Source of the DNA: Chiloscyllium plagiosum | Taxonomy: Eukaryota | DNA: 64,000 nucleotides | NCBI RefSeq assembly: GCF_004010195.1 | Contig: NC_057710.1 | Coordinates: 95,132,381-95,196,380 of the forward strand | Reading direction: 5' to 3' | Shown: piece by piece, positions 1 to 60,741 of the stretch | How positions within the stretch are numbered: position 1 is the stretch's first letter | How the letters are laid out: each line of letters opens with the position of its first letter | Translations under genes and position numbers: made by a program | The notes under the pieces: model-generated | What the model saw: only the letters and a program-made list of their open reading frames with translations | Told to the model about the DNA's origin: nothing | Database searches by the model: none

Positions 1-312
1 TGACTTGTCCGGACTTGTCCGACCTGCCCAGCTCCTTTTCCACCTATCCACTCCACCCTCTCCTCCCTGACCTATCACCTTCATCTCCTCCCCCACTGAC
101 CTATTGTACTCTATGCTAATCTCTCCCCACCTCCACCCTCCTCTAGCTTATCTCTCCACGCTTCAGGATCTCTGCCTTTATTCCTGATGAAGGGCTTTTG
201 CCCGAAACGTCGATTTTGCTGAAGCTCCTCGGATGCTGCCTGAATTGCTGTGCTCTTCCAGCACCATTGATCCAGAATCTGGTTTCCAGCATCTGCAGTC
301 ATTGTTTTTCCC
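1..312 (+). mobile_element. Penelope-like element 3' terminal region (pLTR) with hammerhead ribozyme
   Basis: C/T-rich tract, then CTGATGA-AGGGCTTTTGCCC-GAAACGTC and the tail ...GGATGCTGCCTGA...TTCCAGCA...CCAGCATCTGCAGTC. The same tail follows GIY-YIG coding sequence at 13200-14060 and 44148-44733. Confidence 0.8.
179..215 (+). ncRNA. Minimal type I hammerhead ribozyme (PLE type), intact core
   Basis: CUGAUGA 184-190; stem II GGGC(192-195)/UUUU/GCCC(200-203); GAAA 204-207; loopless palindromic stem III ACGU; GUC triplet, predicted cut after C211; short stem I AUUC/GAUU. Confidence 0.8.
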
Positions 313-319
313 CATAACA

Positions 320-995
320 GAGCACATGTTAGTCAGGCAGAGTCAGCATGGCCTTCTGAAAGGAAAGTCACATTTAACTAATCTAGTTCTTTGAGCATGT
401 AACACACTTTGTGGATGAAGGGGAATCGATGATTATACTGTATTTAGATATCCAGAATGCATTTTATTAAATTTCACATAAAAGATGTTGACAGAAAATA
501 AAGCTCATTGTGTAGTTGCAGCATATTAGCATGGATAGAAGATAGGCTGGCCAACAGAAAGTGGAGAGTATCCATAAATGAGTCTTTATAAGGTTAGTAA
601 GATGTAATAGGTAGTGTGCCACACTATTGGGATCTGACCTGCTTCCAATTTATATCAGTGACTTAATTGAAGGGATGAAAAATATGGTTGCCAAATTTGA
701 CACAAAGTTAGTAAGTTGTGAAGAGGACATAAGGAGGCTGAAAATTATTAGAGATAGGTTGTGATTTGACCAAGATCTGGCAAATGCAGTGAAATGTAGG
801 AAAATGTAAAACTGTCTTTTTGTCACAAAGAACTAAATAGGTATATTATCTAAATGGTGATAGATTGCAGAAATCTGAGGTGCAAGGGGATTTAGGTGTT
901 GTACTGCCTGAATTGCAAAAGGTTAATATGTAGTTACAACAAGCAATTAAGAAAGCTAATAGAATGTTATCATTTATCATGAGGTGAATTGAATC
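320..995 (+). mobile_element. CR1 LINE ORF2 (RT) fragment, decayed
   Basis: Translates with frameshifts to QSQHGLLKGKSHLTNL..FFEHVT..VDEGE..LYLDIQNAF and further RT motifs to KKANRMLSFI. Confidence 0.8.
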
Positions 996-1009
996 AGATT
1001 ACATCTAAA

Positions 1010-1312
1010 TCCATGAGGCTATAGATACCCATATAGGTCCCTGGTTATGTCTGCCGATTTGTGGGGTACGTGGATCACTTCTCATTTGAGTCCTACTCGA
1101 GTCCCTCTCAAAACTCCTTCTCCAATGTACCAATTATGTCAAGGGTGCTGCTTCCTACTCTTGCCTGGAATGGGAAAAATTAATAATTTTGTTTACAATT
1201 TCCATTCTTCTGTCATCTTCATCTGGTGTATCTCTGATTCCTCTCACCCCTTCCTTTACTTCACTGCTTCTATTTCTGGGGGTGGATTGTCCACCAAAGT
1301 CCATTACAAATG
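1010..1312 (+). mobile_element. Penelope-like RT fragment, decayed
   Basis: Degenerate G.AMGT.MGP..A..FVGYV motif, then INNFVYNFHSSVIFIWCISDSSHPFLYFTASISGGGLSTKVHYK, resembling the PLE RT F(T)W.IS...LPFLD.....L.T..Y/HYK region. Confidence 0.65.
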
Positions 1313-1523
1313 CAAATTCAGAGAAATGCAACATAAGCACAAAGAACAGCACTTCATTTTTTGATTGGGCACTTTACAACCTTCAGAATTCAACTGAGTT
1401 CAACAATTTCAGAGTATGAATGTTGATTTCCATTTTCATTATACCACCTGCCCACCCACTTCCATCAATGCCTTGTTTTCATGGGTTTTCTTTCAGCAGA
1501 ACTGGCCTATTTTTCTCCCCTTT

Positions 1524-2070
1524 AGTCATAGTCATAGAGTCATAGAGGTGTACAGCACAGAAATAGACCTTTCGGTCCAACTCGTCCATGCCGTCCAGAT
1601 ATCCTAACCTAATCTAGTCCCATTTGCCAACACTTGACTCATATCTCTCTAAACTCTTCCTATTCATATACCCATCCAGATGCCTGTTAAATGTTGTAAT
1701 TGTACCAGCCTCCACCACTTCCTCTGGCATTCCACAAATGCACTATCCTCTGCATGAAAAAGTTGCCCCTTAGGACCCTTTTAAATTTTTCCCCTCTCAC
1801 CCTAAACATCTGACCTCCAGTTTTGAACTGTCCTACCCCAGGGAAAATACCTTGTTTATTTTTCCTATCCAGGCCCCTCATGATTTTATAAACCTCTATG
1901 AGGTTAGCCCTCAGCCTCCGACACTCCAGGGAAAACAGCCCCATACTATTCAGCCTCTTCCTGTAGCTCAAAGTCTCCAACCCTGGCAATATCCTTGTAA
2001 ATCTTTTCTGAACCCTTTCAAGTTTCACAACATCTTTCCAATAGGAGAGAGGGCATAACTGCACACAATA
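1524..2070 (-). mobile_element. CR1/HER1-type LINE 3' end
   Basis: ORF 1687-2064 (KDVVKLERVQKRFTRILPGL..RRLRANLIEVYKIMRG), 3' UTR and (TCTATGAC)n tail. Confidence 0.9.
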
Positions 2071-2319
2071 TTTGGCATCTCAGTTATCTCTTTAACTACC
2101 ATTAGCATTCCCTTTGACTGTTGTTCTGTGCACCCTCACATCTAATCCATTTGCTTTCTCCTCCACCTTTGTCAACAGTATTTTCCAGCCTCCGTCAGTT
2201 CCAAAGAACAGCTGTGAAATGATAATTCTGTTTCTGACTCTGCAGCTGCTGCCAGACCTGTTGAGTTTATCCAACAATTCCTTTTTTTAAATAAAGTAGA
2301 AAGATTGTGTTTCAGTTAT

Positions 2320-2883: not shown

Positions 2884-3047
2884 CGGTAACCCATACCTTC
2901 CTACCTTTCTTTGTGGTTTATGCAAGATTAGCTACCATGCCTTTGTTCCACTCATTTCCATCATTGATATCAATTGGAAAAAGCTGTGGCCCCAGCAAAA
3001 AAGCACTGTGGGACTCCACGCATCATATCCTGCCAATGAGAAAAACA

Positions 3048-3210
3048 GCTGAAAATGTGTTGCTGGAAAAGCGCAGCAGCATAAGCCCTTCTTCGGCTTA
3101 TGCCCGAAACATCGATTCTCCTGTTCCTTGGATGCTGCCTGACCTGCTGCGCTTTTCCAGCAACACATTTTCAGCTCTGATCTCCAGCATCTGCAGCCCT
3201 CACTTTCTCT
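3048..3210 (+). mobile_element. Short fold-back PLE-terminus insertion with 14-bp TSD
   Basis: TSD CAATGAGAAAAACA at 3034-3047 and 3211-3224; perfect 32-bp inverted repeat 3048-3079/3144-3175; inversion centre lies in hammerhead stem II sequence (GCATAAGCC/GGCTTATGC). Confidence 0.9.
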
Positions 3211-4239
3211 CAATGAGAAAAACACCCAATCTTGACTTTGATCCATGCTACTATGTTATCCTTACACCTTGAGTGCCCACATTGGGCATTCTCAAGGCAC
3301 ACTGTCAAATACCTTCTGAAAATCCCATTTACAATATATTTGTTTAGAGACTCCTCTTATCCACAGGGCATAGTTTCCCTTTCACAAAATCATGCTGATC
3401 TTCCCAACTATCTTGAGGTTTCCACATGTCCATCTAATAACCTCCTTACTGATCAATTTTAACACTTGTTATTCTAAGTAATATAAAACTGTAAAATAGT
3501 AGAATTCAAGTCTCTTTTAACTCCCTTCTACATTATTCCAGGGAAAACAATGAATGGTTCAGCTGTAATGGATGGCACATTTAAAGGGAACATTTCATTT
3601 TTCCATTTCTGACAGTAAAGAGAAGTCACTGCTGAAAGGAGAATGAGTAAGAGTCAAGTTACAGGAAAGAAAAATGTAGATCTATAATGCATCCAAAATT
3701 AGTCAGTAACTGAATGAAAATATAATAAGTGGAATGTATGTAGTTGCTTCTAAGCTTCAGTCCATTTGTGATCCTCTGAGTAACATTTCCACTGTGAATG
3801 TTAACCTATTAACAAATCTACCAAACAACATTTCATTTATGTAATTCAGTGCATGCATGAATTTAAAACATGATATAAACAGACTCACAAAAGTGCACTC
3901 AGTAAAAACCAATGCAGACCTAATTCTTCTACATAGCATTTTCTGTGTGTAACCAATTACAGATTAACATGTGCTTTTTCTTTCTTGTAGACTCTACTAA
4001 TATTTTAAATACTCACCCACTTGTACACACCTATTGTGCCAGGAAGTTACTATCAGCAAAGTTTACAATGAGTGACTTAAATATGAAACACAGCAGGAAA
4101 CATTATTTTCTAATATCAGAGAGCCTCAATACAGTTTGGATAAAATTAATAAGAGTGATGGGCATTTTAATAATCAGTTTAATCTAAGAATACATGCATG
4201 GCAATGGTTAATTTGACTATTTCAGAAATGAGCCAAGGT

Positions 4240-9729: not shown

Positions 9730-9854
9730 CCTGAAGAAGGGCTTTTGTTGAAACATTGATTTTCCTGCTCCTCGGATGCTGCCTGACCTGCTGTGCTTTT
9801 CCAGCACCACACTCTCGACTCTAATCTCCAGCATCTGCAGTCCTCACTTTCTCC
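9730..9854 (+). mobile_element. Short PLE-terminus insertion with degenerate hammerhead, 13-bp TSD
   Basis: TSD TATTCAGCCCATT 9717-9729/9855-9867; starts at CCTGAAGAAGGGCTTTTG..GAAAC. Confidence 0.85.
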
Positions 9855-12787: not shown

Positions 12788-13196
12788 ATGTCCTTCAGGG
12801 AAGGAAATCTGTCATCCTTGCCTGGTCTGGTATACATGTAACTGCAGACCCGTAGCAATGTAGTTGACTCTCAGTTGCCCTCTGAAGTGGCCTAGCAAGC
12901 CAGTCAGTTGTACCAATCACTACAAAGCCTCAAAGAAATGCAACTGGACTGATTACCTGGCAGCGACATAGGCACCAGAAAAGACAAGCAGAAACAGCCC
13001 TATCCATTTTGCAAAGTCCTCCTGACTGACATCTGGGAGCTAGTGCCAAAATGGGGACAGCTGTCTCACAAACTAGTCAAGCAACAGCCTAACATAGTTA
13101 CACTCACTGAATCATACCTTATAGACAGCATCCCAGGCACCAGCATAACCATCCGGCAGGACAGACCCTGCAGCGGTAGCAGCACAGTGGTATACA
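12788..13196 (+). mobile_element. Family B LINE 5' UTR and endonuclease N-terminus
   Basis: NIW.LVPKWGQLSHKLVKQQPNIVTLTESYL..RQDRP..GSSTVVY (APE-like N-terminus); opposite orientation to the adjacent 3' part. Confidence 0.75.
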
Positions 13197-13199
13197 GTG

Positions 13200-14060
13200 C
13201 ATGCAGATGCACCAAACAACCCCACCACTATGTGGCTAATCACTTCAACTCCCCCTCCCATTCTCCCGAGGACTTGCAGATCCTGGCCCTCCTCCACTGC
13301 CAAATCAAAGCCACTTGCCAAATGTAGAAGAACGCTTGATATTCCACCTTGGGACCTACAAACACATGGCATCAATATTCAAGAGTATCATAGAATCCCT
13401 ACAGTGTGAAAACAGGCCATTAGGCCCAACAAGTCCACACCCACCCTCCAAAGAGTAACCCACGCAGACCCATTCCCCTACACTATTACTGTAAATTTCT
13501 CCTAACTAATACACCTAACCTACACATCCCTGAACACTATGGGCAATTTAGCATGGCCAATTCACTTAACCTGCACATCCTTGGATTGTGGGAGGAAACA
13601 AAAGCAGCCAGAGGAAACCCATGCAGACACAGGGAGAATGTGCAAACTCCACACAGGCAGTTGCCTGAGGCTGGAATCAAACGCGGTCCCGGGCGCTGTG
13701 AGGCAGCAATGCTAACCCCTGAGCCACTGTGCTGCCCTTGACTTCAACAGTTTCCAAATCTCGCCTCTGCCCACCTCATCCGAGATCCAATCCTCCAACT
13801 TGGCACTGCTGCCTTGACCTGTCCTACCTGTCTATTTTCCCACCTATCCACTTCACCCTCACTATCACACTTACCTCCCACCTACATCTACCTATCCCCA
13901 TCCCAGCTACCTTTCTCCCAGCTCCATTCCTACCCCGTATTACCTCTCACCCCCTTACCCCTCCACATTCCTGATCAAAGGCCTGTGCCCAAAATGTCAA
14001 CTCTCCAGCTGCTCGGCTGCTGCCTGACCTGCTGTGTCTATTACAGCGTCACAGCTTTCG
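13200..14060 (+). mobile_element. Penelope-like element 3' part (GIY-YIG C-terminus + pLTR), interrupted by HE1
   Basis: TKQPHHYVANHFNSPSHSPEDLQILALLHCQ...LIFHLGT..HGINI, resuming after the SINE as DFNSFQIS, C/T-rich tract, decayed hammerhead (CCTGATCAAAGGCCTGTGCCCAAAATGTC, ~13970-13998) and terminal motif. Confidence 0.85.
13386..13737 (-). mobile_element. HE1-type SINE, near full length
   Basis: Minus-strand head GGGCAGCACAGTGGCTCAG.GGTTAGCA.TGCTGCCTCACAGCGCC, V-domain-like core, tail ..CACACTGTAGGGATTCTATGA. Confidence 0.92.
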
Positions 14061-14158
14061 ATGTTGGTCAGACCGAAAAACTGCTGGTCACCTGATTGGT
14101 GGGCAGTTCCCAAATGTGAGACTATCCCACCTGTTAGAGGTGGCAAGCCCTGCTTAAG

Positions 14159-14260
14159 ACACTTTCCTCATTCCTGAAGAAGGGCTCATGCCCGAAACGT
14201 TGATTCTCCTGCTCCTTGGATGCTGCCTGACCTGCTGCGCTTTTCCAGCAACACATTTTC
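14159..14260 (+). mobile_element. Short PLE-terminus insertion with hammerhead, 13-bp TSD
   Basis: TSD AGCCCTGCTTAAG 14146-14158/14261-14273. Confidence 0.9.
14170..14205 (+). ncRNA. Minimal type I hammerhead ribozyme
   Basis: CUGAAGA 14174-14180, stem II GGGC/UCAU/GCCC, GAAACGUU (GUU triplet), stem I AUUC/GAUU. Confidence 0.7.
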
Positions 14261-16469: not shown

Positions 16470-16655
16470 AAGAGCAAACTACTAGAGATACTTGGAATCT
16501 GAAATAAAAAGACAAAATGTTGGAGAAACTTAGCAGTTATAGCAGCAGCTGTTCCGAAACAGATTATTATCGGACTCTTAAAGTTAACTCTGTTTCTCTC
16601 TCCACAGATGTTGCCAGATCTGCTTAAGTTTCTCCAGAACTTTTATTTTAATGTC
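16470..16655. mobile_element. Old fold-back PLE-terminus element
   Basis: Imperfect inverted arms TGGAGAAACTTAGCAG.. / ..CTGCTTAAGTTTCTCCA with the terminal motif TCTCTCCACAGATGTTGCCAGA. Confidence 0.6.
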
Positions 16656-19600
16656 AGACAATTATGTTTATTGGCCCAAGGTCATTCTATTCTCTCCCTC
16701 TGCCTTTGCTTGTTGGCTTTGTCCCTGGGTAAGCCAACAAGCCAATCGAAACTCCCACGATAAGCAGGGTAGAACTTATCAGAAACATAAAAAGTAAAGC
16801 TTTAATTTTTTTACTGCAGCTTGAGGGAAGTCCAATGAGTGGAAAACGTACAAGGGACATTTCATAGAATACAGCAGAGTGACCTGAAGAGAGAAACAAA
16901 ACTTTGGAGGGTTTCCTTAAGGAGGAGCAAGTGCCCTCCTCATTCTGCAGAGAACATATCAGCCTTGTCAGCCTGGACATTTCCTCTCCTTCTCACAAGT
17001 GGCAAACCAATGCCCACTCCATTCCCTCTCAAAAGCAGCACCACCACCATCTTTACTGAGGATACCACATCTCTGCCACGATCAAAATTGCATTCCTGCT
17101 CCCATTCTCTGGTTCTGAACACATTCCCATCAAATTTGGACAGAAGTCAGATGCATATCATGAGAAGGAGGCCCACCAATTTAAAATTGACCATGCCTCT
17201 CTTGCTTGCTTCCTGCCAGCACACACACACACACTCCCAGTTATAGGCATTTCTTTGGACTCAGAAAACCGGGCCACACTGACACATTTTGTATCATTAG
17301 GTTGTTAACAGCAGTGTTCTGAGCTACACAACACAGATTTTATTTTCAAATAGTAACAAGAAACTTTGCATAAAATTTAACTGTGATCACGTCTCCATTA
17401 AAAAAGCTGTATTTTGCTTCTTTTCTCAATGAGAATAATTCTCTTGAATTCACCTAGGCACTAATCCAATCTTGGGGTTCAGATAACAATAAACCACTCA
17501 AGTATCTCTCTCAGGGGATTATGACATCACCTGAACCCCTCGATTGGATTACTGCCATGTAATTCACTTACAGTATCCATTACATCCTCTACATGTGGTG
17601 GAAAAAGAGAGGCAGCATATCCCTATTCAACCATTTCTATGTTTATTTTAATTCCTTATAAGATAAGTTATCGAATCATGTGTTCACTATATCTGTGCAG
17701 CTATTTATCTCTGCGCATCTACAAGAGTTATTGCTGAGCATGTGTGTTTATCTATTTATATGCCCAAATAAATGATCGTACCGGGAAATGTCAAGCAAAA
17801 ATATCCATGTGAATTGGGAATGTCGTCTGTATAATAAGGGTTAAAAGTTGGAGAATGAAGATAAACTGTTCAGAACTTGAAAGGCACATGGGCCACTCAG
17901 ATGGATGACGTCTGTAAGGCCCAGACCCCCTCCCCAACCCTTGGGGAAATGGAGGGCCAGGTGCATCTTTTTCTAAATCAAATTAACCACAAGATGCCAC
18001 ATCCAATCTTGGTAAATTGATGTGAGACTTTGTGCTGCCTATAGTGGATCTTACAGCAAAGGTCAATGCTGGTGTGTGCTCAGACACAACACATAAGCCT
18101 GCTGCATGGCAACATGTATAGTGGAAGGAAAATATCTGAAAAAATCCAGCAATCAGTAAAAATGGCTCTTGGAAAATTATGCTAGCAATTATGTGAGCTA
18201 TAATACATCTTCATTAGACAGTATTATAACCTACGCACATAACAAATTTTATACATTTGTTTAGACTTGTTGAAAAAGAATATAACATGCCAATAACTAA
18301 ACACATCCAAGAAGGCTTTGTTATTACAATATTATTTAAATCATGTGATAATATCCAAAGAAAACATATTTATACTTTTAGCATAATGTAATCCCAGTCT
18401 GATTTCTCATTTTTTCTCCATTTTTTTGTTTGCTCTATCACTTCACTCCACATTAAATATAAAACTTACCTTTTTCCATTGCTCAAATCAAAAATCTCTT
18501 AAACTGACTTCCAATTTCCTCTATAAAATGATCTTGAAACACCTATTTGTGACGGATGTTCTCTGCTGACTACAATGTACAGCTTTCAAAAGGCTGCATT
18601 AAAATGAGAAAAATGAGTGCAGTGTTCGCATCACTTGCCTTCTGTGTTGGTTGTTTGACTGAGAATGTGTGAACTGTTTAGTAGATTTGACATCTGTGCT
18701 GTAAGTCACATTGGCGCAGTTTAATAGAAATTAATTTAAATCTTGAATCCAATGACACTGGTTCTTCAGTGCGTGCTGCAGAACTCACTTCTCAATTTCT
18801 ATTGATCCAGAAAGGTTTAAAGGATCATATTGGCAAAACAATTCAAATTAATAACTTTCATCAGAATTTTAACAAGACTGCAACTGCAGCATCTTTTAAC
18901 CATGCGACAAATATGGAATAGTATATTCTATTAATTTTTAAGATACATATTGTACATTTTATGTCTAATACTTTGGTTCTATGACCCAAATACTTTCTTA
19001 ATTTTGCTTTTTTATGAATTTATGATGTTTTGTATTTTTCAGCTTGAGCTAGAATATGTATTTACTATTTGACAGTCATCTCTAACAATATAATTTTATA
19101 TTGCTGTTTCTGAAATATATATTTACTATTAAGTTTTCAAACACATAGCTAACAAGCATATTTTTATACTAATATCTTTTCATCTTTTTTATGATTTTTT
19201 ATGATTTTGGTCAGTGAAAGAAATATGCAAAATTAATTGCTTACATTTTGAAGTAATTTTGGAAAACATTGATGACTTTAATGTGCTTATGAAAGTATAA
19301 TTAACAAATTTATGTCACACATAGGCAATGCAGTTGTTAAATTATAGATTCCCTTATTAATTAATATGTAAAAATAAGACTTCCCAGTTAATCAGAAATC
19401 CTAAATTGCAATGCTTGCCTGTATCAATAAGATTTTTGCATACCATCATTCATTTTTTGTCATCTTCCACATGAATTCAATTGAATTTGGAGAAATTAAA
19501 TGAAGCACAGTTATAAATTATACCTTTCCAATGCAGAGTCTTACATGGTCACCGCAGACCATTAAAGATCTTTTAACCAATTCATGTTGCTGGGGAATGT

Positions 19601-19747: not shown

Positions 19748-19842
19748 ATTCCTGAAGAAGGGCTCATGCCCGAAACATCGATTCTCCTGCTCCTTGGATG
19801 CTGCCTGACCTGCTGCGCTTTTCCAGCAACACATTTTCAGCT
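19748..19842 (+). mobile_element. Short PLE-terminus insertion with hammerhead, 9-bp TSD
   Basis: TSD CCTTCACTG 19739-19747/19843-19851; begins ATTC-CTGAAGA-AGGGCTCATGCCC-GAAACATC (stem III broken by CpG decay). Confidence 0.9.
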
Positions 19843-20539
19843 CCTTCACTGTCTACCACCTACTAGCCCCAGGACCAACCAGGGAAAAGGTGGCAATAAG
19901 GTTTGTGGCAGTAGTGACAAACACACAGTTACTGGATGGATGGATGGGCTCTGTTAATGGTCCATTTTCCAAGAAATAGCACCATTACCATTACCAGTAC
20001 TAATAGTAATATACCATTATAAATTACACTCTTAGCTTTCTATTTGAAATATACAAGAAAGTCACATTTCTAGTCTTGAATTTGAATTTTATATGGGTGC
20101 AGTTTCATAACTTCAAATGTGATTATTGTTGGAGATTAAAAAATAGAAGAAGTGAAATGTTTAATTTTTTCTGTCTGATTCTTATCTCACTGATCAGACT
20201 GTCTTTGTAACACAGGAAGAATTCCATTGTAACAATGCAGTTTGTTATTTTATAGCAGTGGAATCTCTCTTGTTGACAGAGATTTCACCAGGATTTAATC
20301 CTCTCTATACACAGAGATAATGAACACTAAGGACAGCAGGTTTGAAGCAATCTTTGGAAGAGATATTGAGCTCAAATGTGTGTGCTACACTTAGAACAAA
20401 TAGGTTACTTCCTTGCATTATTTCTCTCATTTAGCTTTATGAACCCCCAATCTGGTACCTATGGCCTGACTTTGCATGAACAATATGGTGAGGTTAACTG
20501 TGCTCAATATTACTATTGAACAAATTATAGATTTTTCTT

Positions 20540-30333: not shown

Positions 30334-30649
30334 GTGATAAATCCCATCCACTTGTAATGATGTAGGCAAAGAAGCTTGGTTCAGAATCCCTATTTCCAAT
30401 CCAGATGAGATGAAAAGTTACATTCTTCCCCTCACATGATCTTTCAGGTCCAACCTCCAATACAGGATCCATCCCAACAAACACCGTCTGGCAAACCATG
30501 CTGGCAGCATCAGAGTGAAATATTGTCCAAGCCACATTGCCTCTTTATAGCAATAACTGCTGTATTCTGACAAGTAAATGTTTAAAGGGCCAAAACCATT
30601 TTGGTACTGATTGAGGGAAGTTAGATGTGTTAGGAAAATAGTTCAAGAG

Positions 30650-30858
30650 CAAAAACAGAAATTGCTGGAGAAACTCAGCAGGTCTGGCAACATCTGTAAA
30701 GAAACAGCAAAATTAACATTTTAAGTCGAGTAACTCTTCTTCACAAGGTCCAGGATCATTGGATTTTGAAACATTAACTTTTGATTTCTCTCCAGATACT
30801 GCCAGACCTGCTCAGTTTCTCTGGCTATTTGTGTTTTTGTTTCAGATTTCCAGCACCC
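30650..30858. mobile_element. Fold-back PLE-terminus element, older family
   Basis: Inverted arms GAGAAACTCAGCAGGTCTGGCA / TGCCAGACCTGCTCAGTTTCTC; decayed hammerhead-like TGAAGA-AGAGT..ACTT-AAA on the minus strand near the centre. Confidence 0.7.
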
Positions 30859-30859
30859 A

Positions 30860-31430
30860 CGGGTGAAGAAATTGCTTCTCATGTCAATCCTAAATGTCCT
30901 ACCCTGAATGCATAAACTGTGACCCCCGGTTCCTCAATCATCAGGGACATTCTTTCTATCCTTAGCCTGTCCTGTCCTATTCAAGTTTTATAGGTTTCTT
31001 TTAGATTCCCCTTTATTCTTCTAAATTCCAATGAATATAATCTTAACCAAATTAATCTTTTTTTCGTATGTCAGTCCTGCCATCCCAGGAATTCATTGCA
31101 CACTTTCCATATCCCTTGCTCCTGTAATTGAAACCTCTTACTGTGAAGGCCATCATACTATGTGCATCCTTCACAGCTGGCTGCACTTGCATGCTTACCT
31201 TCAGCAAATGATCTCCAAGGACACCCAAGTTTTATTACACTTCCCCCCCTTTCTCAATGTATCTCCATTCAGATAATAGTAAGTCTTTCATTATTTGCCA
31301 CCAGAGTGGGTAACTTCACATTTATCCACATTATAACTCATTTGCCCATTCACTCAACTTGCCCAAATTACAATGAAGCATCTCTGCATCCTCCTCAGAG
31401 CTCATCCTCCTACCCAGCCTTGTGCCACTT
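30860..31430 (-). mobile_element. CR1 LINE fragment with deletions
   Basis: ORF2 C-terminal motifs on the minus strand, ending at the (D)DTK.GR.. position near 31428. Confidence 0.7.
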
Positions 31431-32725: not shown

Positions 32726-33441
32726 GCACTTGAGACACCATGTGAAATTATGTGGGGACAACATGCATTCGCAGCATGACTTGTTAATGGGTTGTTTGCT
32801 CACTTTCACAAGGGAGACTACAAATTGCCTTGGAGGATACCCTCAATTAGTTCTGGGCCTAGAGGCCAATTTTGTACACTGCCATCTTGGCATGGGTGGT
32901 AACAGTCTGGACTGACTGCCTGTTAGATAACAGCAAGGACATTGGAGCGTGACTGAAAAAAAGCTTCATTCCACATGGAATCACCACCACCCCACAGCAG
33001 TGGACTGCTTCAGTTATTTTAATAATGTGTGGAGCACAGACTGCTGGACTGGTCGAAAACCGTGCAAGCTCCTTTGAGCATTAGGATCTGCAGCTGAGCC
33101 TGCACGGTAACAAGCTAAGACTTCATGACCTCAAGCTGAGCTTCCAGTGCAGCACGAGGCTTCAGCTTGTGTGCCAATAAAAGCTAAGCACATCAGACAC
33201 TGCACCATGCTTGGGTATATAATGACTGTCATACAGTTAGTCTCTGTCTCCACTCTAGACAGGGTGCACAGATGATGTTTTGGCCTCAAAACAGTTCCTT
33301 TAGTACTGAAACTATGCACTTGAGACACCATGTGAAATTATGTGGGGACAAGATGCATTCGCAGCATGACTTGTTAATGGGTTATTTTCTCATTTTCACA
33401 AGGGAGACTACAGATTGCTTCGGAGGATACCCTCAATTAGT
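32726..33441 (+). repeat. 126-bp direct duplication (32726-32851 / 33316-33441)
   Basis: 7 mismatches in 126 bp by manual alignment, no indels, 590-bp offset. Confidence 0.95.
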
Positions 33442-34897: not shown

Positions 34898-35800
34898 TGT
34901 AAGACCATAAGAACATAAGACATAGGAGCAGAAATTAGAACATTCGGCACATTGAGTCTGCTCTGCCATTCAATCATGGCTGATAGGTTTTCTACATTTT
35001 CCTGCTTTCTCCTTGTAACCTTTCATCATCATGGCAATCAAAACTTGTTTAAATATACTCAATGACCTGGCCTCCACAGCCTTCTATGGCAATGAATTCC
35101 ACAAATTCACCACTCTCTGGTTAAAGAACTTTTTCCTTATGTCCATCTAAATGTTCTTCCATTATTCTAAGGTTGCACCCTCAGGTCTTTGTCTCTCCTA
35201 CCAATGGGAACTACTTCCCAACGTCCACTCTGTCCAGGCCATTTGGTATTCTGAAAGTTTCAATAAGATCTCCCCTCATCCTTCTAAACTCCATCGAGGA
35301 TAATTCCAGAGTCCTCAAAGGTTCCTCATATGTAAAGCCTTTCATTCCTGGCATCATTCTCATGAACCTCCTCTGGACTCTTTCCAGCGTCAATAAACTT
35401 TGCTGAGGTATGGGCCCAAAACTGCTCAGAATACTCTAAATGTGGTCTGGCCAGACCCTTATAAAGCCTCAGAAGTACATTCCTGCTTTTATATTTGAGT
35501 CCTCTTGAGATGAATGCCAACATTGCATTTGCCTTCCTAACTACCGACTTAACCTGCAAGTTTACCCGAAGAGAAAACTGGACCAGGACTCCCAAGTACT
35601 TTTGCACTTCAGATTTCTGAATTTTCTCCCCAATTAGAAAATAGTCCATGCCTCTATCCTTCCTACCAAAGTGCATGACCTCACACTTTCCCATGTTGTA
35701 TTTCATCTGCCACTTCTTTCTCCACTTTGCTAAACTGTCTAAAATTTCTGCTGTCTCCCCACCTCCTCAATACCACCTGCCCCTCTGCCCATTTTTGTTT
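34898..35800 (-). mobile_element. CR1 LINE 3' ~0.9 kb, running into the minisatellite
   Basis: ORFs 35326-35706 (MKYNMGKCEVMHFGRK..VRKANAMLAFISRGL.YKS..LLRLYK.L.RPHLEY) and 35211-35393; (TCTTATG)n tail. Confidence 0.92.
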
Positions 35801-38511
35801 CAGCTTCCCCAACTCCTCAATACGACCTGCCCTTTGACCTGTCTTTGTATCGACTTCACCAACTCAAGACTACCTGCTCCTCTACCAATCTTTGTATCAG
35901 TCTCCCCAACTCCTCAATACAACATGCCCCTCGACCTATCTTTGTATCAGCTTGCCCAAAACCTCAATACGACCTGCACCTCTATCTATCTTGTATCTTC
36001 ATCCCCAACACCTCAATACTACCTGCCCCTTTACCTGTCTTTGTATCAGTCACCCAAACTCCTCAATACCACCTGCTCCTCCACCAATCTTTGTATCAGC
36101 CTCCCCAACTCCTGAATACTACCTGCTCCGCTACCTATCTTTGTATCAGCTTCCCCAACTCCTCAATCCCACCTGCTCCTCTACCTATCTTTGTATCTTC
36201 TTCCCCAACTCCTCAATAATACCTGCCCCTCTGCCTATCTTTTTATCAGCTTCCCCAACTCCTCAATACAACCTGCCCCTTTACCTATCTTTGTATTAGC
36301 TTCCCCAACCCCTCAATACTACCTGCTCCTCTACCTATCTTTGTATCAGCCTCCCCAATTCCTGAATACTACTAGCTTTTCTACCTATCTTAGTATCAGC
36401 TTCCCCAACTCCTCAATACCACCTGCCCCTCTACCTATCTTTGTATCTTCTTCCCCACCACCTCAATACTACCTGCTCCTCAACCAATCTTTGTATCAGC
36501 CTCGCCAACTCCTGAATATTACCTGCTCCTCGACCTAATTTTGTAGCTGCCTCCCCACCTCCTCAATACTACCTGCCCCTTTACCTATCTTTGTATCAGC
36601 TCCCCAACTCCTCAATACGACCTGCTCCTCCACCTATCTTTATATGAGCTTCCACAACTCCTCTACCTATATTTGTATTAGCCTCCCCAACTCCTCAATA
36701 CGACCTGCTCCTCAACATATCTTTGTATCAGCTTCCCAAACTCCTCAATACTATCTGCTAATCTACCTATCTTTGTATTTATTTCCCCAACTCCTCAATT
36801 CCACTTGCCCATTTACCTATCTTTGTAGCTGCCTCCCCAACTCCTCAATACTACCTGCCCCTTTACCTATTCTGTATCAGCTCCCCAACTCCTCAATACT
36901 ACCTGCTCCGCCACCTATCTTTATGTGAGCTTCCACGTCTCCTCAATACCACCTGCCCATCTACCTATCTTTGTATCAGCTTCCAAAACTCCTCAATACT
37001 AACTGCTCCTCCACCTATCTCTGTATCAGCTTCCCAAACTGCTCAATACTACTTGCTCCTCTATCTATATTTGTATTAGCCTCCCCAACTCCTCAATATG
37101 ACCTGCTCCTCCACCTATCTTTGTATCAGCTTCCCCAACTCCTCAGAACTACCTGCCCCTCTACTTATCCTTGTATCAGCTTCCCCAACTCCTCAATACT
37201 ACCTGCCCCTTTATCTATCTTTGTATCAGCAACCCCAAGTCCTCACTATTACCTGCCCCATTTCCTATCTTTGTATAAGCCTACCCAACACCTCAATACT
37301 ACCTGCTCATCGACGTATCTCTGTATCAGTTTCCCCAACTGCTCAACACCACCTTTGTATCAGCTTCCCCAACTCCTCAGTACTACCTGCCCCTCTACTT
37401 ATCTTTGTATCAGCTTCCTCAAGTCCTCAATACAACCTGCCCCTTTACCTATCTTTGTATAAGACTACCCAACACCTCAATACTACCTGCCCATCTACCT
37501 ATCTTTGTATCAGCCTCCCCAACTGCTCAATACTACCTGCTTTTGTATCTTCTTCCCCAACTCCTCAATACTATCTGCCCCTCTGCCTATCTTTGTATCA
37601 GCCTCCCCAACTCCTCAATACCACCTGCCCCTCTACCTATCTTTTTATCAGCCTCCCCAACTCCTCAATACTACCTGTTCCTCTACCGATATTTGTATCA
37701 GTTTCCCCAACCCCTCAATACCACCTGCTCCTCTACCTATCTTTGTATCTTCTTCCCCAACTCCTCAATACTACCTGCTCCTCTACCTATCTTTGTATCA
37801 GCCTCCCCAACTGCTGAATACTACCTGCCCCTTTACCTATCTTTGTGTCAGCTTCCCAATTCCTCAATACTACCTGCCCCTTTACCTATCTTTGTATCAG
37901 CTCCCCAACTCCTCAATACGACCTGCTCCTCTACCTATCTTTGTATCATCTTCCCTAACACCTCAATAATACCAGAACCTTTAACTATCTTTGTATCAGC
38001 TTCCCCAACACCTCAATACTACCTGCCCATCTACCTATCTTTGTATCAGCCTCCCCAACTCCTCAATACTATTTGTTCCTCTACCGATCTTTGTATCAGT
38101 TTCCCCAACTCTACAGTACTACCTGCCCCTCTACTTATCTTTGTACCTCGTTTTTATCTTTGTATAAGCCTACCCAACACCTCAATACTACTGGTCATCG
38201 AAGTATCTCTGTATCAGCTTCCCCAACTGCCCAATACTACCTGCTCATTGATGTATATCTGTATCAGCTGCCCCAACTCCTCAGCACCACCTGCCCCTCT
38301 ACCTATCTTTGTATTAGTCTCCCCAACTCCTCAATACTACCTGCCCCTCTACCTATCTTTGTATCAGTCTCCCCAACTGCTCAATACGACCTGCCCCTTT
38401 ATCTATCTTTGTATCTGCATCCCGAAGTCCTCAATACTGCCTGCCGCTTTACATTTCTTCGTATCAGCATCCCCAACCCCTCAATATCACCTGCTCCTCT
38501 ACCTATCTTTG
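35750..38511. repeat. 50-bp minisatellite, about 55 visible copies, truncated by an assembly gap
   Basis: Consensus CTCCTCAATACTACCTGCCCCTCTACCTATCTTTGTATCAGCTTCCCCAA; the reverse complement encodes DTKIGRGAGSIEE of CR1 RT. Confidence 0.97.
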
Positions 38512-42525: not shown

Positions 42526-43074
42526 AAAAAGGTCTTGGGCATCAAGGCTCTCTATTCATGATGAGAACACTGTCTGGGGCATTTGTCTCCATACTCACAA
42601 TGAGGACACTGTCCTGTGTGTCAGGCCCTCCATACACATTAACTTGGGCATTAGGTTGTCTATTCATTAAGAGGGCTGTGTGCTGGAGATCAGACTCTCT
42701 TTTTACATGTGATCATGGACATTAGGCTTCCTATTTATGAAAAGAACACTGTATAGGGCATTAGACTATCTATTTACAAAGAGGATAGTGGGCATTAGGG
42801 TTCCTATTTACGAAGGGGACAGTGTTTCCTGCGTCGGGCTCTCTATTTATGAAGAGGATAGAATTCTGGGCTTTAGGTTCTCAATTTATGAAAAGGGCAA
42901 TGTCTTTTTAGTACACACCATCATGGGCATCAGGCTCTCTAATTCCTCACTGTTATAGGCACCAGGGTCTCTATTTATGAAGAGGACAATGTCTTGGGCA
43001 TCAGAATCTCTACTTACATAATGTCCTGAGCAACACTCTCCCATTTATGAAAAGGACACTGTCCTGGATATTAG

Positions 43075-43253
43075 ATAAAAATTGAAAGAACTGCAGATGC
43101 TGTGAATCAGAAACAATAGAAACTGAAAAAATAGAATATGAAAATAGAAAACTGAGTTCTGAGGAAGGGTCACTCAACCCGAAACGTCCATTCTGATTTC
43201 TCTCCACAGATGCTGCCAGACCTGCTAAGCTTTTCCAGTAATCTCTATTCTTG
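43075..43253 (+). mobile_element. PLE-terminus insertion with inverted 5' piece, ~14-bp TSD
   Basis: TSD GTCCTGG(A/G)TATTAG 43061-43074/43254-43267; inverted AACTGCAGATGCTG piece at left, hammerhead and tail at right. Confidence 0.75.
43155..43192 (+). ncRNA. Minimal hammerhead ribozyme, second sequence family
   Basis: CUGAGGA 43159-43165, stem II GGGU/CACUCA/ACCC, GAAACGUC 43181-43188; stem I poorly paired. Confidence 0.6.
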
Positions 43254-43589
43254 GTCCTGGGTATTAGGTTCTCTCTTTATGAAGGAGTCACTATCCTAGC
43301 CATTAAGCTCTCTATTAAGATAAAGGACGTTGTCCTGTGCATTAGCTTCTCTATTTATGGTGAGGACAGTGTCCTAGGCATTAGGAGAGAGGATCACATG
43401 GAGCAGCATTTTAAGCTGCAAGGAGTTTACAGACATTACAAATGAGACCCGATCATTCAAATAATTTATTCTGTTATTGTTTTAGTTAAAGAGGGAAATG
43501 AGAGAAACTGAAAATAACTGTTTTTGTTATAGCAAAGAGGATTAAAAGAAGAAAGATTTGCATTCATATAAAAGCTTCCCTAGGTATCT

Positions 43590-43894: not shown

Positions 43895-44147
43895 TGCAAG
43901 TCCTCCTTACTAACATCTGGGGCTAGTGCTAAAATTGCATAGCTGTCTCACAGACCAGTAAAGCAAAAGTTGATAAAGTGTGGAGCTGAAAAGAGTGCAG
44001 CTGGCTAAGCAGCATTAGAGGAGCAGGGGAGTCGAGGTGTCAGGTCGGAACCTTGCAAAGGTTCCGAACAGTAAAGCAACAGCCTGATGTAGTCATACTC
44101 ATGGAATCACACTTTACATCTCCCAGGCATCACCATCACCATCCCTA
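43895..44147 (+). mobile_element. Family B endonuclease N-terminus containing a minus-strand PLE mini-insertion (43967-44068)
   Basis: LLTNIWG..LSHRPVKQ|QPDVVILMESH; TSD CAGTAAAGCAA 43956-43966/44069-44079; the insert ends in hairpin TCGGAACCTT-GCA-AAGGTTCCGA. Confidence 0.8.
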
Positions 44148-44733
44148 TCAGCGTTCCGAAAAGACCACTCCCTCCGTGACTCCCACGTCAGGTCCACACC
44201 CCCCACCAACCCAACCTCCACTCCCAGCACTTTCCCCTGCAACCGCAAGAAATACAAAACTTGCGCCCACACCTCCCCCCTTACTTCCCTCCAAGGCTCC
44301 AAGGGACACTTCCATATCCGCCACAAATTCACCTGCACCTCCACACACATCATCTATTGCATCTGCTGCACCCGATGTGACCTCCTCTATATTGGGGAGA
44401 CAGGTCACCTACTTGCGGAACGTTTCAGAGAGCACCTCTGGGACACCCGGACCANNNNNNNNNNNNNNNNNNNNNNNNNNNNNNNNNNNCTATGGCCTAT
44501 CACCCTCATCTTGACCTCCTTCCACCTATCGCATTTCCAACGCACCTCCCCCAAGTCCCTCCTCCCTACCTTTTATCTTAGCCTGCTGGACACACTTTCC
44601 TCATTCCTGAAGAAGAGCTTATGCCCGAAACGTCGATTCTCCTGTTCCTTGGATGCTGCCTGACCTGCTGCGCTTTTCCAGCAACACATTTTCAGCTCTG
44701 ATCTCCAGCATCTGCAGTCCTCACTTTCTCCTC
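44148..44733 (+). mobile_element. Young Penelope-like element, 5'-truncated: GIY-YIG endonuclease + pLTR (35-N gap at 44455-44489)
   Basis: Open frame 44148-44453, absent from the ORF track: SAFRKDHSLRDSHVRS..TFPCNRKKYKTCAH..FTCTSTHIIYCICCTRCDLLYIGETGHLLAERFREHLWDTRT (Cys linker + IIY..C..C...YIGET..L..RF.EH). Confidence 0.92.
44603..44638 (+). ncRNA. Minimal type I hammerhead ribozyme
   Basis: CUGAAGA 44607-44613, stem II GAGC/UUAU/GCCC (one mismatch), GAAACGUC, predicted cut after C44634. Confidence 0.7.
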
Positions 44734-47169: not shown

Positions 47170-47800
47170 GCTTAGAAGCCAAAGGTTAGTTGAGGGAAGC
47201 CAGCATGAATTTATTAAAACAGAGTAAAATGCAGTAAATTCTGGAAATTTGAAATAAAGACAGAACATGCTGAAAAAGACTCACTATAGATGATGAGACA
47301 AACAGACTTAATGCTTCAAGTCAATGACTGTAACCAAAATTTTCCCTAAGTGCTGCCTGACTTGCTGCATGTTTTCAGGATTTTTGATTTTTATTATGAA
47401 TTTATCAAAGATAGATTTGCCAAATTAAATGTACTTTTGTTTAAAGGAATGATCAATCACATAGATATTGGAAATGCCACGGATCTCCTTGATTTTCAGA
47501 AGCTATCAATGAGGTACTTAATGAGAGGCTTGTTAGAAAAAAACTATGTGTATGATATAACAGAAAATGTAGCAGATTAACAGACAGAGAAGAAACAAAG
47601 GGTTTGGGCAAATGGGTACTACTTGTATGGGAGAAAGGTCAATAGTGTCCCAAGGGTCAGTTCTGGGTTCACCTTTGCTCCTGGATTTAAAAATAAAGAA
47701 AATGAACTCAAAATTGGCTGATGATACATTAGTGTATCTGGTAAACAATACAAAACACTTGAGGAAAAATTGGCCAGATTACTAGAATCAATGTAAACTG
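47170..47800 (+). mobile_element. Old CR1 RT fragment with nested fold-back PLE element (47219-47395)
   Basis: ESQHEFIK..LDFQK..VPRVSSG..KLADDT; TSD ATGAATTTAT(T/C)AAA 47205-47218/47396-47409. Confidence 0.7.
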
Positions 47801-55084: not shown

Positions 55085-55435
55085 CTCTCATAATTTTGAG
55101 AGCCAAGTTATGTTCTGAGGACCAGGTTCAAATCTCACCAGAACGAATGGTGAAATTTGAATTCAATCAAAAATAAATTTGAAATTAAAAGTCGAATGAT
55201 CATCAGAAAATCATTGCTAATTGTCAAGAAAAATCTATGTGGTTGGTTAATGTCCTTTAGGGAGGGAAATCTGCTGTCCTAACCTGATCTAGCCTACATG
55301 TTGACTATTAACTGCCCTCTGAATGATACAACAAGTTGTTTTATTCTATAAACTGCTCAAAAGAAAAAGGGGAAAGAACCTGTACTGAATAGACCAGCCA
55401 ATGATGCCCACATCTTATGAACGAATGAAGAAAAA
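55085..55435 (+). mobile_element. Non-autonomous SINE-like derivative of family B
   Basis: AGGTTCAAATC B-box-like, GTCCTTTAGGGAGGGAAATCTG.. 5' UTR block, CCAGCCAATGATGCCCACATC..GAATGAA tail. Confidence 0.65.
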
Positions 55436-55439
55436 TCAG

Positions 55440-57505: not shown

Positions 57506-57569
57506 TGTGTTTGATGGACAGAGAGAGACCTATGTTTAAATACAAAACTCTGCAAAAGTGCCTGGTAAC

Positions 57570-58085
57570 CTCATAGAATCTGGGCTTTTATAAATAAGGG
57601 GAAGAAATTTAAGAACAAGGAATGAGTAATGAATTGATTGGTCAGGATAGACTGAGAACTAAGTTTGTAGCTCTGGGCACTCCATGACTAAAGATCACTA
57701 AAGCAGTGGGGAATTTGCAGCATAGATTCACTGGGACGACGCCAGGGTGAGAATGGATAATTATGAGGAGGGAATTGAGATATTTCCACTTGAGTAGAAA
57801 TGGCTGAGAAGAGAATTAATCAAGTTTTTTTAAAATTAAAAAGTGTTTTTTATTGTGAAATGGAAGGAAAACATTTCCTCTGGCTAGAGTTTCTGTGATT
57901 CAGTATCATCAATTCAAAATTGTCACTAACTGAGGAGGAGAGAGATGAACAGATATTTCTTTACACAGGGCACTGTTCATGAATGGAATGCTTTGCCACA
58001 TTATAGAGAGAATCTCACCTTTTAAAAGAGATTGGATAAAATATTTGAAGCAGAATAATATGCCGTAGAATATGGAGAGAGTGGG
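57570..58085 (+). mobile_element. Old CR1 3' fragment
   Basis: Degenerate LGFINKG.KFKNKE..RFTGTTPG..WLRRELIKFFKI motifs. Confidence 0.6.
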
Positions 58086-59354
58086 GTTCATCCTACACGT
58101 CCTGCATATGTGTGCAACAATATTAACTACTCTCCCCTTCCCCTAATTCTGAAAAAGCGTCACTGAACCCAAAATATTAATTCTGCTTGCTTTCCACAGA
58201 TGCTTTCAGACTTCCTGACTTTCTCCAGCAATTTCTGTTTTTGTTTTGCCTATAGAATGTCTAAAACAAATCTGCACCTACGGCAAGACTTGGTAATTGA
58301 ATTGATTTGGGATCATCCTAGCAGAGAAGTTATAAATAAATGTTGAGCCTAACAGCCTCAGTCTAGCTGTAAAGATCTACTGTAAGTATATCATTGATGA
58401 GGAGAACAATGAAGAGGATCAGGCCATGCAAGAGCAAGAAGCATCCCCACATTCCTGTATCTAAACCCATTTAATGCTAGTCCTAGTGTCACTTCCATTC
58501 TTCTCCACTGCACCAGCTGAAAATGGTGGGTTGGGAATGGGAGGGTGATATATTACGTGATGCTAATTAAGGTTTGGCACTGGATGATTTACAGAGCTTA
58601 AGCTAATGAGAATATATCAGCCTCATCTTGGAGAATGCAGCGTCAGATGCCTTTGGTTTTGCACTTGAAACATTATCTCATGTATGCTCAGTTAAAGAGA
58701 CATGTAAGGAAATCACTCTATATAAGGAATCTGATGTATCAGTTTGGCAATTTACATCTGTGACTGTGTAATCTACAATCCTCATTTGAAGTAATATTAA
58801 ACAAGAGCTATTCTCTGTAGTTGTGAATGAAAATTGACTGAGTCTGGCATCAAGGTGTCCCAGGAAACTAAGTGAATGAGAATCGGGGGATATCTCTCCA
58901 CCAGTTGGAATCATACTTAGCACAAATAAAGATGGTCGTGGTTGTTGGAAGACAGTCATCTGAACTTTAGGATATCTTTGAAGGGGTTTGTTAGGGTAGT
59001 ACCCTAGATCAAACCATCTTCAGCTGCTTCTCCAATGATATTCACAGTATCATACAGTCAGAAGTGGGGATGTTAGCTGATGATTACACAACGTTCTCCA
59101 CCAGTTGCAATTCTTCAGATATCGAAGCAGTCTATGTTGAAATGAAGCAAAACCAAGACAATATCCATGCTTGGACTGACAACTAGCAAATAATATTCAC
59201 CTCACTCGAGTACCAGGTAACAAGCATGTCCAACAAGAGAGAATCTAATATTTGCACCTTGACACTTGATAGCATTACTATCACTGAGTCCCCCCAATCA
59301 AGATCCTCAAGGTTATCAATGATTAGAAATTGAACTGGACTAGCCATATAAATA

Positions 59355-59473
59355 AAAGATCGTGAGATGCTGGAGATTAGAGTCAAAAAATATGTCACTG
59401 GAAAAGCACAGTAGATCAGGCAGCATCCGAGGAGCAGAAGATTCGACGTTTTGGGCATAAGCCCTTCATCAGA
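59355..59473 (-). mobile_element. Short PLE-terminus insertion with hammerhead, ~16-bp TSD
   Basis: TSD ACTAGCCAT(A/T)TAAATA 59339-59354/59474-59489; minus strand begins T-CTGATGA-AGGGCTTATGCCC-AAAACGTC (G12 mutated). Confidence 0.85.
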
Positions 59474-59593
59474 ACTAGCCATTTAAATACTGCCACAACA
59501 AAATCAGGTCAGAGACTATAAATCATGCCATGAGTGACTGACTCACCAAAGCCTGTCCATCCTCCATAAGTCACAAGTCAGGAATCTGAAGGA

Positions 59594-60741
59594 ATAAGAC
59601 CATAAGACCATAAGGCCATAGGAGCAGAAATTAGCCCATTCAGCCCATTGAGTCTGCTCCACATTCAATCATGGTTAGAGACAAAAAAAAACTGCAGATG
59701 CTGGAATCCAACGTAGACAAACAGGAGGCAGGAAGAGCACAGCAAGCCAGGCAGCATCAGGAGGTGGAGAAGTCGATGTTTCAGGTGTAACCTTTCTTCA
59801 GTACGCCTGAAGAAGGGTTACAGCTGAAATGTGGACTTCTGCACCTCCTGATGCTGCCTGGCTTGCTGTGTTCTTCCTGCCTTCTACTTGACCATCATTC
59901 AATCATGGCTGATAAGTTTCTCAATCATATTCTCCCATTTTCTCCCTGTAACCCTTCATCCCTTTGGTACTCAAGAACCTATCTATTTCAGTCTTAAATA
60001 TACTCAGTGACCTGGCCTCCACAGCCTTCTATGGCAATGTATTTCATAGATTCACCACTCTCTGGCTGAAGAAGTTTCTTCTTATCTCCATTCTAAAAAG
60101 TCTTCCTTTAACTCTAAGTCTATGCTCTTGGTCCGGGTGTCTCCTACCAATGGAAACATCTTCCCAACATCTACTCTGTCCAGGCCATTCAGTATTCTGT
60201 AAGTTTCAATTAGATACCCACTCATCCTTCTAAACTACATCGAGTATAAACCCAGAGTTCTCAACCATTCATCATAAGTTAAGCTTTTGATTCCTGGGAC
60301 TATTCTTGTGAACCTCCTCTGAACACTCTCCAGGGCCATTACGTCCTTCCTGAGATATGGAATGCAAAACTGCACACAGTACTCTATATGTGGTCTGATC
60401 TGAGCCTTATAGAGGCTCAACAGTACATCCCTGCTTTTATATTCAAGTCCTCTCAAAATAAATGCTATCATTGCATTTGCCTTCCTAATTACAGACTCAA
60501 CTTGCAAGTTTTCCTTGGCAGAAGCCTGGACTAGAACTTCCAAGCCTTATTGCGCTTCAGACATCTGAATTTTCTCTCCATTTGCAAAACTGTCCATACC
60601 TCTGTACTTCCTACCAAAGTGCATGACCTCACGCTTTCCCATGTTGTGCTCCACCTGCCACTTCTTTGCCTTAACCTACCCAAATCCTTCTGCAGCCTTT
60701 CTGTCTCCTCAATGCTACCTGTCTCTCTACCTATCTTTGTA
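59594..60741 (-). mobile_element. CR1 LINE 3' ~0.9 kb, same subfamily as 34898-35800
   Basis: ORF 60235-60543 (VIRKANAMIAFILRGLEYKSRDVLLSLYKA.IRPHIEYCVQF); (TGGTCTTA)n tail; 5' end at TKIGRETGSIEE. Confidence 0.92.
59675..59895. mobile_element. Fold-back PLE-terminus insertion with two divergent hammerheads, 13-bp TSD
   Basis: TSD CATTCAATCATGG 59662-59674/59896-59908; inverted arms 59726-59801/59807-59882 with 5-nt spacer; each arm starts at CTGAAGA. Confidence 0.9.

Follow-up and report, generated by a model that had tools for sequence, protein, structure and literature searches.

Short hammerhead-motif inserts in Chiloscyllium plagiosum DNA: probable truncated copies of Penelope-like element ends with 5' ends clustered at the ribozyme edge

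We analysed a 64,000-nucleotide stretch of repeat-rich vertebrate DNA from Chiloscyllium plagiosum (contig NC_057710.1, positions 95,132,381 to 95,196,380 of the forward strand; hereafter the window) that carries many short inserts, or stubs, made of the terminal part of Penelope-like elements (PLEs), this part including a hammerhead ribozyme motif. These stubs are real, abundant and mostly ordinary PLE debris, shark examples that come with one testable mechanistic hint: their 5' ends cluster at the ribozyme edge, which is the one feature that goes beyond known PLE anatomy. Our best explanation, to which we give a probability of roughly 0.7, is that the inserts are dead-on-arrival truncated copies of PLE ends, primed internally and ending near either the 5' end of the RNA or the folded ribozyme. 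Earlier publications already report minimal hammerheads standing alone as relics of truncated PLEs, together with inverted partners, tails and target-site duplications (TSDs). Positions within the element are numbered relative to C3 of the hammerhead, which is 44607 in the reference long copy at 44133..44732.

A preliminary description of the window, made from its letters alone, had listed at least nine inserts of 95-220 bp flanked by TSDs of 9-16 bp. A TSD search around each insert found direct repeats of 9-16 bp on both sides of all nine, and the measured lengths are 95-221 bp; the inserts lie at 3048..3210, 9730..9854, 14159..14260, 19748..19842, 43075..43253, 43967..44068, 47215..47395, 59355..59473 and 59675..59895. 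With identical search geometry, a score of at least 9 was reached at 1/300 random positions. Four inserts, all within older repeats (9730, 43967, 59355 and 59675), were tested for empty sites, and in all four excision of the insert plus one repeat gave a continuous alignment to paralogous empty copies. The remark that some inserts include an inverted copy holds for four of the nine, which have a clear head-to-head partner (3048, 43075, 47215 and 59675), while 43967 has an 11-nt fold-back instead.

A profile built from the window copies gave 20 matches at 16 loci in the window and none in the reversed window used as a control. These loci are the nine TSD-bounded stubs, three older stubs (16475, 30644 and 58100) and four ends of longer copies (184, 2201, 13971 and 44607); TSD searches at the older stubs and the long copies found none. 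The density of about one locus per 4 kb is higher than the one copy per 5-7 kb first estimated, and the motif at 179, with which the set had been said to begin, is the end of a longer copy reaching the window edge and not a micro-insert. The very high abundance that had been proposed is borne out by the 148,481 contigs from one public DNA run that matched a 280-nt stretch of the element, contig depth not being the same as copy number.

PLE origin of the inserts, as first proposed, is supported. The preliminary description had placed PLE reverse transcriptase (RT) and GIY-YIG sequences at 1010, 13200 and 44148, and remnants were recovered at 1040-1310 (RT) and at 13211-13365 and 44133-44453 (endonuclease, EN). 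By tblastn the RT remnant is 38-50% identical to P0001/P0003 (E=1e-7 to 3e-6). The EN remnant at 44133-44453 matches Pfam PF01541 with E=1.4e-4 and 22.5 bits (cut-off 22.6) and is 72% identical to P0001, which itself matches RVT_1 (weakly) and GIY-YIG; among 9 matches from 58 candidates, the closest named relatives of this GIY-YIG remnant come from Chiloscyllium punctatum, whose proteins reach 72% and 67% identity. The window thus has the features of an EN-bearing (EN+) PLE: a C-terminal GIY-YIG domain with internal cysteines upstream of the pseudo-long terminal repeat (pLTR), a PLE-type RT (as a remnant only), and insertions with an optional 3' tail, an inverted 5'-truncated partner and a short TSD. 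Mobilisation by the PLE RT/GIY-YIG machinery, as had been proposed, is likewise supported as a reading of this anatomy. According to Craig et al. (2021; PMC8557442), a CX2-5CxxC linker upstream of GIY-YIG is typical of Neptune and Nematis, and Poseidon is without it. The corresponding stretch reads C-x4-C-x2-C in P0001 and C-x4-Y-x2-C in the window copy, in which one cysteine is mutated, and this motif points to Neptune/Nematis as a possible affiliation of the window EN.

The pattern CTGANGA..GAAAC occurs eight times in the window against 1.33 expected (0/100 shuffles). That most inserts carry CUGANGA-stemII-GAAAC(G)UH, as first described, is an overstatement. The CUGANGA..GAAAC-N-UH core is kept in five of the nine (9730, 14159, 19748, 43075 and the minus arm of 59675), four retain an intact helix II, and core, helix II and the ACGU palindrome occur together in two (14159 and 43075); among the nine inserts inspected, CUGANGA is missing from 3048, 43967 and 47215, and 59355 has a G12A change in the core. 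Most stubs therefore carry a decayed ribozyme. As a family motif, following the definition of Cervera and De la Pena (2014; PMC4209133), the sequence can be classed as a minimal type I hammerhead, in agreement with the earlier assignment: it shares with those of other PLEs the core, the extra base between A9 and 10.1, G10.1-C11.1 and the palindromic 15.2-16.2, as well as the occurrence of thousands of dispersed solo copies attributed to truncated PLEs and of nearby pairs on opposite strands. It differs in that helix II has 4 bp; sharks go unmentioned in the accessible part of that paper.

The three stem II types on which covariation had been claimed are present in the window copies, but the covariation itself, in 11 aligned copies, is suggestive only. 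Pairing holds in 82% of cells overall (helix II 90%, helix I 70%) and four base pairs have changed on both sides, values that were reached in 38/500 shuffles for pairs, 15/500 for cells and 40/500 for the score. The hammerhead structure is credible from what is known of the family, beyond what this sample of 11 proves, and cleavage is a prediction. Folded as monomers, the copies give weak structures (-3 to -11 kcal/mol), often without the hammerhead form. An Rfam search gave no hammerhead family at E<=1; its mir-1791 and mir-3179 matches are the 59675 hairpin, with scores far below gathering, and were rejected.

At the 3' side, family-A copies in the window end at +86..+90 or at +124/+125; in four public runs, contigs and reads stop sharply at 44731-44733. 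In all six head-to-head pairs the tail profile finds a tail on exactly one arm, giving one long and one short arm. The same one-sided pattern is given, with 8-10-bp TSDs, in the legend to Fig. 2 of Craig et al. (2021; PMC8557442), and Arkhipova et al. (2013; PMC3846280) describe a PLE insertion with a 9-10-bp TSD, a 31-bp tail and an inverted pLTR. Together these two sources describe EN+ PLE insertions that resemble ours in heavy 5' truncation, an adjacent inverted 5'-truncated copy, a 30-40-bp tail often at one end, 8-10-bp TSDs, solo pLTRs and a hammerhead in the pLTR; the window inserts differ in being often shorter than 130 bp as a whole and in having TSDs of up to 16 bp, and a pile-up of 5' ends at the ribozyme edge is not described in the accessible parts of those papers.

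A biochemical counterpart is the Poseidon element of Anolis carolinensis, PAc (Frangieh et al. 2024; PMC11167929). There, two internal RT starts, about 90-125 nt past the hammerhead, delimit the tail, the protein cuts and extends both strands, and hammerhead mutants leave insertion unchanged, so that cleavage is dispensable. Since PAc cuts and extends both strands, we prefer priming at both nicks as the candidate origin of the inverted arm, with fold-back self-priming (Arkhipova) as the alternative. Poseidon is without the CX2-5CxxC linker position and the window EN has it; because this Neptune/Nematis-type linker is absent in Poseidon, the PAc mechanism is transferred here across clades by inference.

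Several further observations concern these junctions. In the inverted arm of 3048 (3062-3094), an internal deletion is joined at a TGC microhomology, which suggests template jumping during insertion. The commonest among the best 15 of 82 joints in public contigs is the opposite-strand joint 44692/44732, apparently tail-to-tail, seen in 18, 12 and 2 contigs, and it may represent insertion into the AT-rich site of another copy. Many junctions from 44731-44733 to 44699-44702 among the joints listed may be tail duplications.

The 5' ends are ragged, spreading over -15..+9, yet clustered. In a conservative hand mapping, 16 arms had ends within -110..+50; four long copies and two tail-only arms outside that range were left out. 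Eight of these 16 ends lie in the interval -5..+2 around C3, some 30 nt 5' of the predicted cut, and for this 8-nt window a uniform null gave 0/40,000 and geometric nulls gave p=0.05, 0.002 and 0.0002. Eleven of the 16 fall within -15..+9 (uniform p=0.0001; geometric p=0.32, 0.02 and 0.001).

Reads from a related species (a sample of 2,784, about 2% of one single-cell polyA run) also show a step, raw depth being 1,553 at +44, 550 at -6 and 218 at -16. The drop is 60% across the 44601/44591 bins versus 3-27% in each bin farther upstream, leaving out the edge bin, and two bins inside the ribozyme lose 35% and 23%. Among the best 24 of 1,049 loose ends, the peak is 135 reads at 44603, which is A(-4). 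Reads lie on both strands and 95% of them continue into unrelated sequence, as expected of passengers in host transcripts; no pile-up of RNA starts on the element stretch is among those listed, the library being ill-suited to this. Of the 82 joints in DNA contigs, the best 15 include head-to-head joints at 44602, 44607, 44612, 44619 and 44621 and tandem joints that return to 44602 and 44604. An open-literature search, with Repbase/Dfam and subscription papers outside its scope, found nothing published about PLE stubs in sharks or about an accumulation of 5' ends at the hammerhead edge.

Because of this clustering the stubs are not plain random truncations, and neither are they a demonstrated separate family. 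The preliminary description had proposed an independent SINE-like (short interspersed nuclear element-like) population and had set against it a smooth truncation continuum without private substitutions; private substitutions are indeed absent, but the ends cluster and form no smooth continuum. Short copies are 98% (3096), 95% (19745) and 93% (14149) identical to the end of 44133-44732, the copy at 3096 reaching 99% over the 76 nt it has in common with the long copy. No private column separates five short from three long family-A copies, a small sample. No RNA polymerase III A or B box (motifs in their usual form and as printed in PMC8969392) was found in the nine inserts or the long-copy end, and a tRNA scan of the inserts found none. 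An independent SINE-like family is thus not supported, given the 93-98% identity to the long copy, the lack of private substitutions and of polymerase III boxes, and, further, the mostly broken ribozymes. At least three divergent PLE families yield the same stubs, which argues for a shared process.

How a shared process might yield such stubs can be outlined. Several EN+ PLE families would each leave TSD-bounded copies of their last 95-130 bases, that is, the hammerhead plus an optional tail of about 35 bases. The autonomous GIY-YIG would cut the target, RT would begin internally on the RNA, at either of two fixed sites (+90 and +125), and would stop near the front edge of the ribozyme, leaving a dead-end by-product. 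Both the initiation at two internal sites and the priming from both cut strands, which would give the inverted arm unless it arises by fold-back self-priming, are taken over from the biochemistry of Anolis Poseidon, a different clade. As to what sets the 5' stop, it may be the template's own 5' end, with A(-4) as the first base of the mRNA: synthesis primed from the 5' copy of these start sites would run off after about 95-130 nt, and copies that extend into the pLTR would derive from a tandem transcript's downstream copy. Within the by-product reading, run-off at the mRNA 5' end is a tentative choice at somewhat less than even odds, and a stall of RT on the folded ribozyme comes close to it in likelihood. 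The stubs keep sequence upstream of the cut, so self-cleavage cannot set their ends.

TCAKTY is an initiator (Inr)-like consensus. A(-4) falls inside a TCAKTY in two of the four long copies, the motif having a frequency of 0.0019 per window position. No consistent extra G precedes A(-4) in the copies inspected, and therefore there is no cap signature. A spliced template was also considered and is not favoured, because the upstream AG lies at inconsistent positions between copies (-27 in 44607, -20 in 184, none in 13971) and the short copies share no upstream exon. The most far-reaching version holds that PLE mRNA starts at the initiator A(-4), that RT, initiating internally some 90 and 125 nt downstream, would give each transcript a second priming site beside its own 5' end, that run-off from this site floods the genome with ribozyme-headed stubs, that one protein dimer primes both nicks at the two different sites and so yields hairpins with a tail on one arm, that the stubs fossilise transcription start sites (TSSs) and dual priming, and that stub dimers are the birth step of retrozymes. 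As a package this is speculative, and we would wager against it holding in full.

Several points weigh against run-off by-products as the explanation. The ends were mapped by hand on only 16 arms, several of them old, and the steepest geometric null already gives the p=0.32 of the 25-nt window. The read step comes from another species, and part of it would be mimicked by subfamilies with a pLTR divergent upstream of the hammerhead; the joints and loose ends are the best-supported 15 of 82 and 24 of 1,049. TCAKTY is present in only two of four long copies, and the same bases form the 5' strand of helix I. The window has no full-length PLE copy. Rare head-to-tail dimers (44733 to 44602 in three contigs, among the joints listed) leave room for some remobilisation. 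Finally, the D. virilis TSS is not at the ribozyme edge: 46 nt separate it from a 75-nt intron, and the intron's end adjoins helix I (Schostak 2008; PMC4209133).

If RT instead stalls on, or is released from, a folded and possibly dimeric, protein-bound hammerhead on a long template, with the end then joined by microhomology, the same dead-end copies would result. Ends scattered over the ribozyme's 5' half (+2, +5 and +9), the 35% and 23% depth losses inside it, the promotion of hammerhead folding by the PAc protein (Frangieh et al. 2024; PMC11167929) and microhomology at some 5' junctions (4 nt, exact, with the TSD at 9730; 7/13 matches at 14159) all fit such a stall. It is at odds with the position of the largest step, which lies on the outer 5' edge, a point that RT would reach only once it had unwound the 3' strand of helix I and stem II, and with the weak monomer folds that often do not take the hammerhead form; we rate it less likely than not, close behind run-off. 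As a separate observation, the TSD of 14159 (14146-14158) resembles the element at both junctions (AGC on the 3' side, the 7/13 upstream), which hints at annealing between target and template.

A non-autonomous family, SINE-like or retrozyme-like, in which short masters transcribed from A(-4) are recopied by PLE protein, would account for the recurrent 5' edge and the huge abundance, as well as for the head-to-tail dimers seen among the listed contig joints (44733 to 44602 and 44696 to 44604); 14159 and 19748 also share two bases that differ from those of 44605 and 3096. There are precedents, since in Adineta pLTRs are all that trans-mobilisation requires in cis (Arkhipova et al. 2013; PMC3846280) and PLE-derived tandem retrozymes are known, including one chondrichthyan example (Li et al. 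2026; bioRxiv 10.64898/2026.07.22.740005). Non-LTR retrozymes (Cervera and De la Pena 2020; PMC7229834; and the same preprint) are, like the stubs, non-coding, hammerhead-bearing and related to PLE pLTRs, but they form head-to-tail tandem arrays that make circular RNA, whereas the window stubs occur as dispersed single units or in head-to-head pairs, and their minimal hammerheads are mostly broken. None of the 16 window loci is a head-to-tail tandem. The lack of private columns and of A/B boxes, the near identity of 3096 to the long copy and the ribozyme intact in only two of nine also speak against such a family, as does the PAc template, which needs open reading frame sequence to +172 with RT starting at +111-118 (Frangieh et al. 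2024; PMC11167929): the stubs are without the roughly 55 nt beyond the RT start that this would require. We consider this origin improbable. Template ends made by hammerhead self-cleavage would agree with a motif whose core and helix II are conserved between families. Copies should then start at +28, and 11 of the 16 ends, at -15..+9, keep the uncut core or stem II; no RNA-start pile-up is listed on the stretch (with the library ill-suited to it), and hammerhead mutants are without effect on PAc insertion (PMC11167929). The end positions largely refute cleavage as what defines the stubs, and we give it very little credence.

The single loci vary in preservation. The 3' end of a longer PLE copy at 1..312 (forward strand) has a pyrimidine-rich pLTR and a long tail, runs to the window edge and aligns to 44493-44719; its minimal hammerhead, also forward, is intact (C3 at 184, predicted cut after 211). 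A degraded, internally deleted long copy at 1010..2290 (forward) holds the RT remnant, a probable EN C-terminal piece at about 1320-1415 (by eye), a long interspersed nuclear element (LINE) inserted at about 1527-2079 and, near 2201 on the same strand, a broken family-B hammerhead found as a profile match. Another longer copy, at 13200..14060 (forward), has the EN C-terminus, the pLTR and a broken hammerhead at 13971, and is interrupted by another repeat at 13388-13736. The reference long copy (forward) consists of the GIY-YIG EN, an assembly gap, the pLTR and the hammerhead, with the predicted cut at 44634/44635 and 3' stops at about 44697 (+90) and at 44732 (+125).

Five of the TSD-bounded stubs lie on the forward strand. 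The 163-bp insert at 3048 (TSD 14 bp, at 3034-3047 and 3211-3224) is 98% identical to 44617-44730 and joins an inverted short arm, internally deleted and with its 5' end at +2, to a direct arm that starts in stem II (+9) and has a long tail. The 125-bp insert at 9730 (TSD 13 bp) has its 5' end at -1, a broken stem II and a long tail. Neither of the next two has a tail: the 102-bp insert at 14159 (5' end -15, TSD 13 bp) carries a fully intact minimal hammerhead with C3 at 14174, and the 95-bp insert at 19748 (TSD 9 bp) starts exactly at A(-4) with core and stem II intact and the ACGU palindrome mutated. At 43075 a 179-bp insert (TSD 14 bp, one mismatch) comprises an inverted tail-only arm, filler and a direct arm from -5 with an intact family-B hammerhead (forward; C3 at 43159); its host is a degenerate tandem repeat with a unit of about 34-36 bp at 42640-43400.

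Two stubs lie on the reverse strand: the old 102-bp insert at 43967 (TSD 11 bp), which starts in stem II and has a broken core, and the 119-bp insert at 59355 (5' end -1, partial tail, TSD 16 bp with one mismatch). No strand is assigned to the old 181-bp insert at 47215 (TSD 10 bp exact, or 14 bp with one mismatch), in which an inverted long-tail arm and a degraded direct arm leave no recognisable core, or to the 221-bp family-C head-to-head pair at 59675 (TSD 13 bp), whose 5' ends lie at the hammerhead edge (-2 and -1) with the tail on the minus arm and none on the plus arm. Missing from the preliminary list are two old family-B head-to-head pairs at 16475..16660 and 30644..30862, both with no strand assigned, and an old family-B copy at 58100..58250 (forward) with a broken core, a 5' end between -4 and about -41 and no convincing TSD.

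The long PLE remnants at 13200 and 44133 begin at corresponding points, to within some 50 nt, of two copies of one LINE-like repeat (13014-13200 and 43898-44147), and the 43967 stub also lies inside the latter, which could be chance or a preferred target. Elsewhere in the window there is a pyrimidine-rich minisatellite of 2.7 kb with a 50-bp unit (35753-38511), a direct duplication of 126 bp at 94% identity (32726-32851 and 33316-33441) and a weak Rfam mir-153 match at 20055-20130 (28.8 bits against a gathering value of 54, E=0.32) that is probably chance. A metagenome scan with a 25-nt pattern and a scan of viral contigs each returned 0; a 19-nt pattern gave 48 metagenome loci with profile scores of 13-21 bits, which we rejected as chance matches because the scores come from little beyond the seed.

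If 16 loci in 64 kb is typical, the stubs would make up a sizeable part of the genome, and they are likely to be mislabelled as SINEs, as miniature inverted-repeat transposable elements or as microRNA hairpins. They bear on how PLE integration is finished, on how inverted repeats with a one-sided tail arise and on the role of the hammerhead, and thousands of short TSD-bounded copies would let run-off, stalling and dual priming be separated computationally. Should the reading in which PLE mRNA starts at A(-4) be true, the stubs would be a genome-wide fossil map of PLE TSSs and of dual priming, and the occasional head-to-tail stub dimers would be the step at which retrozymes are born.

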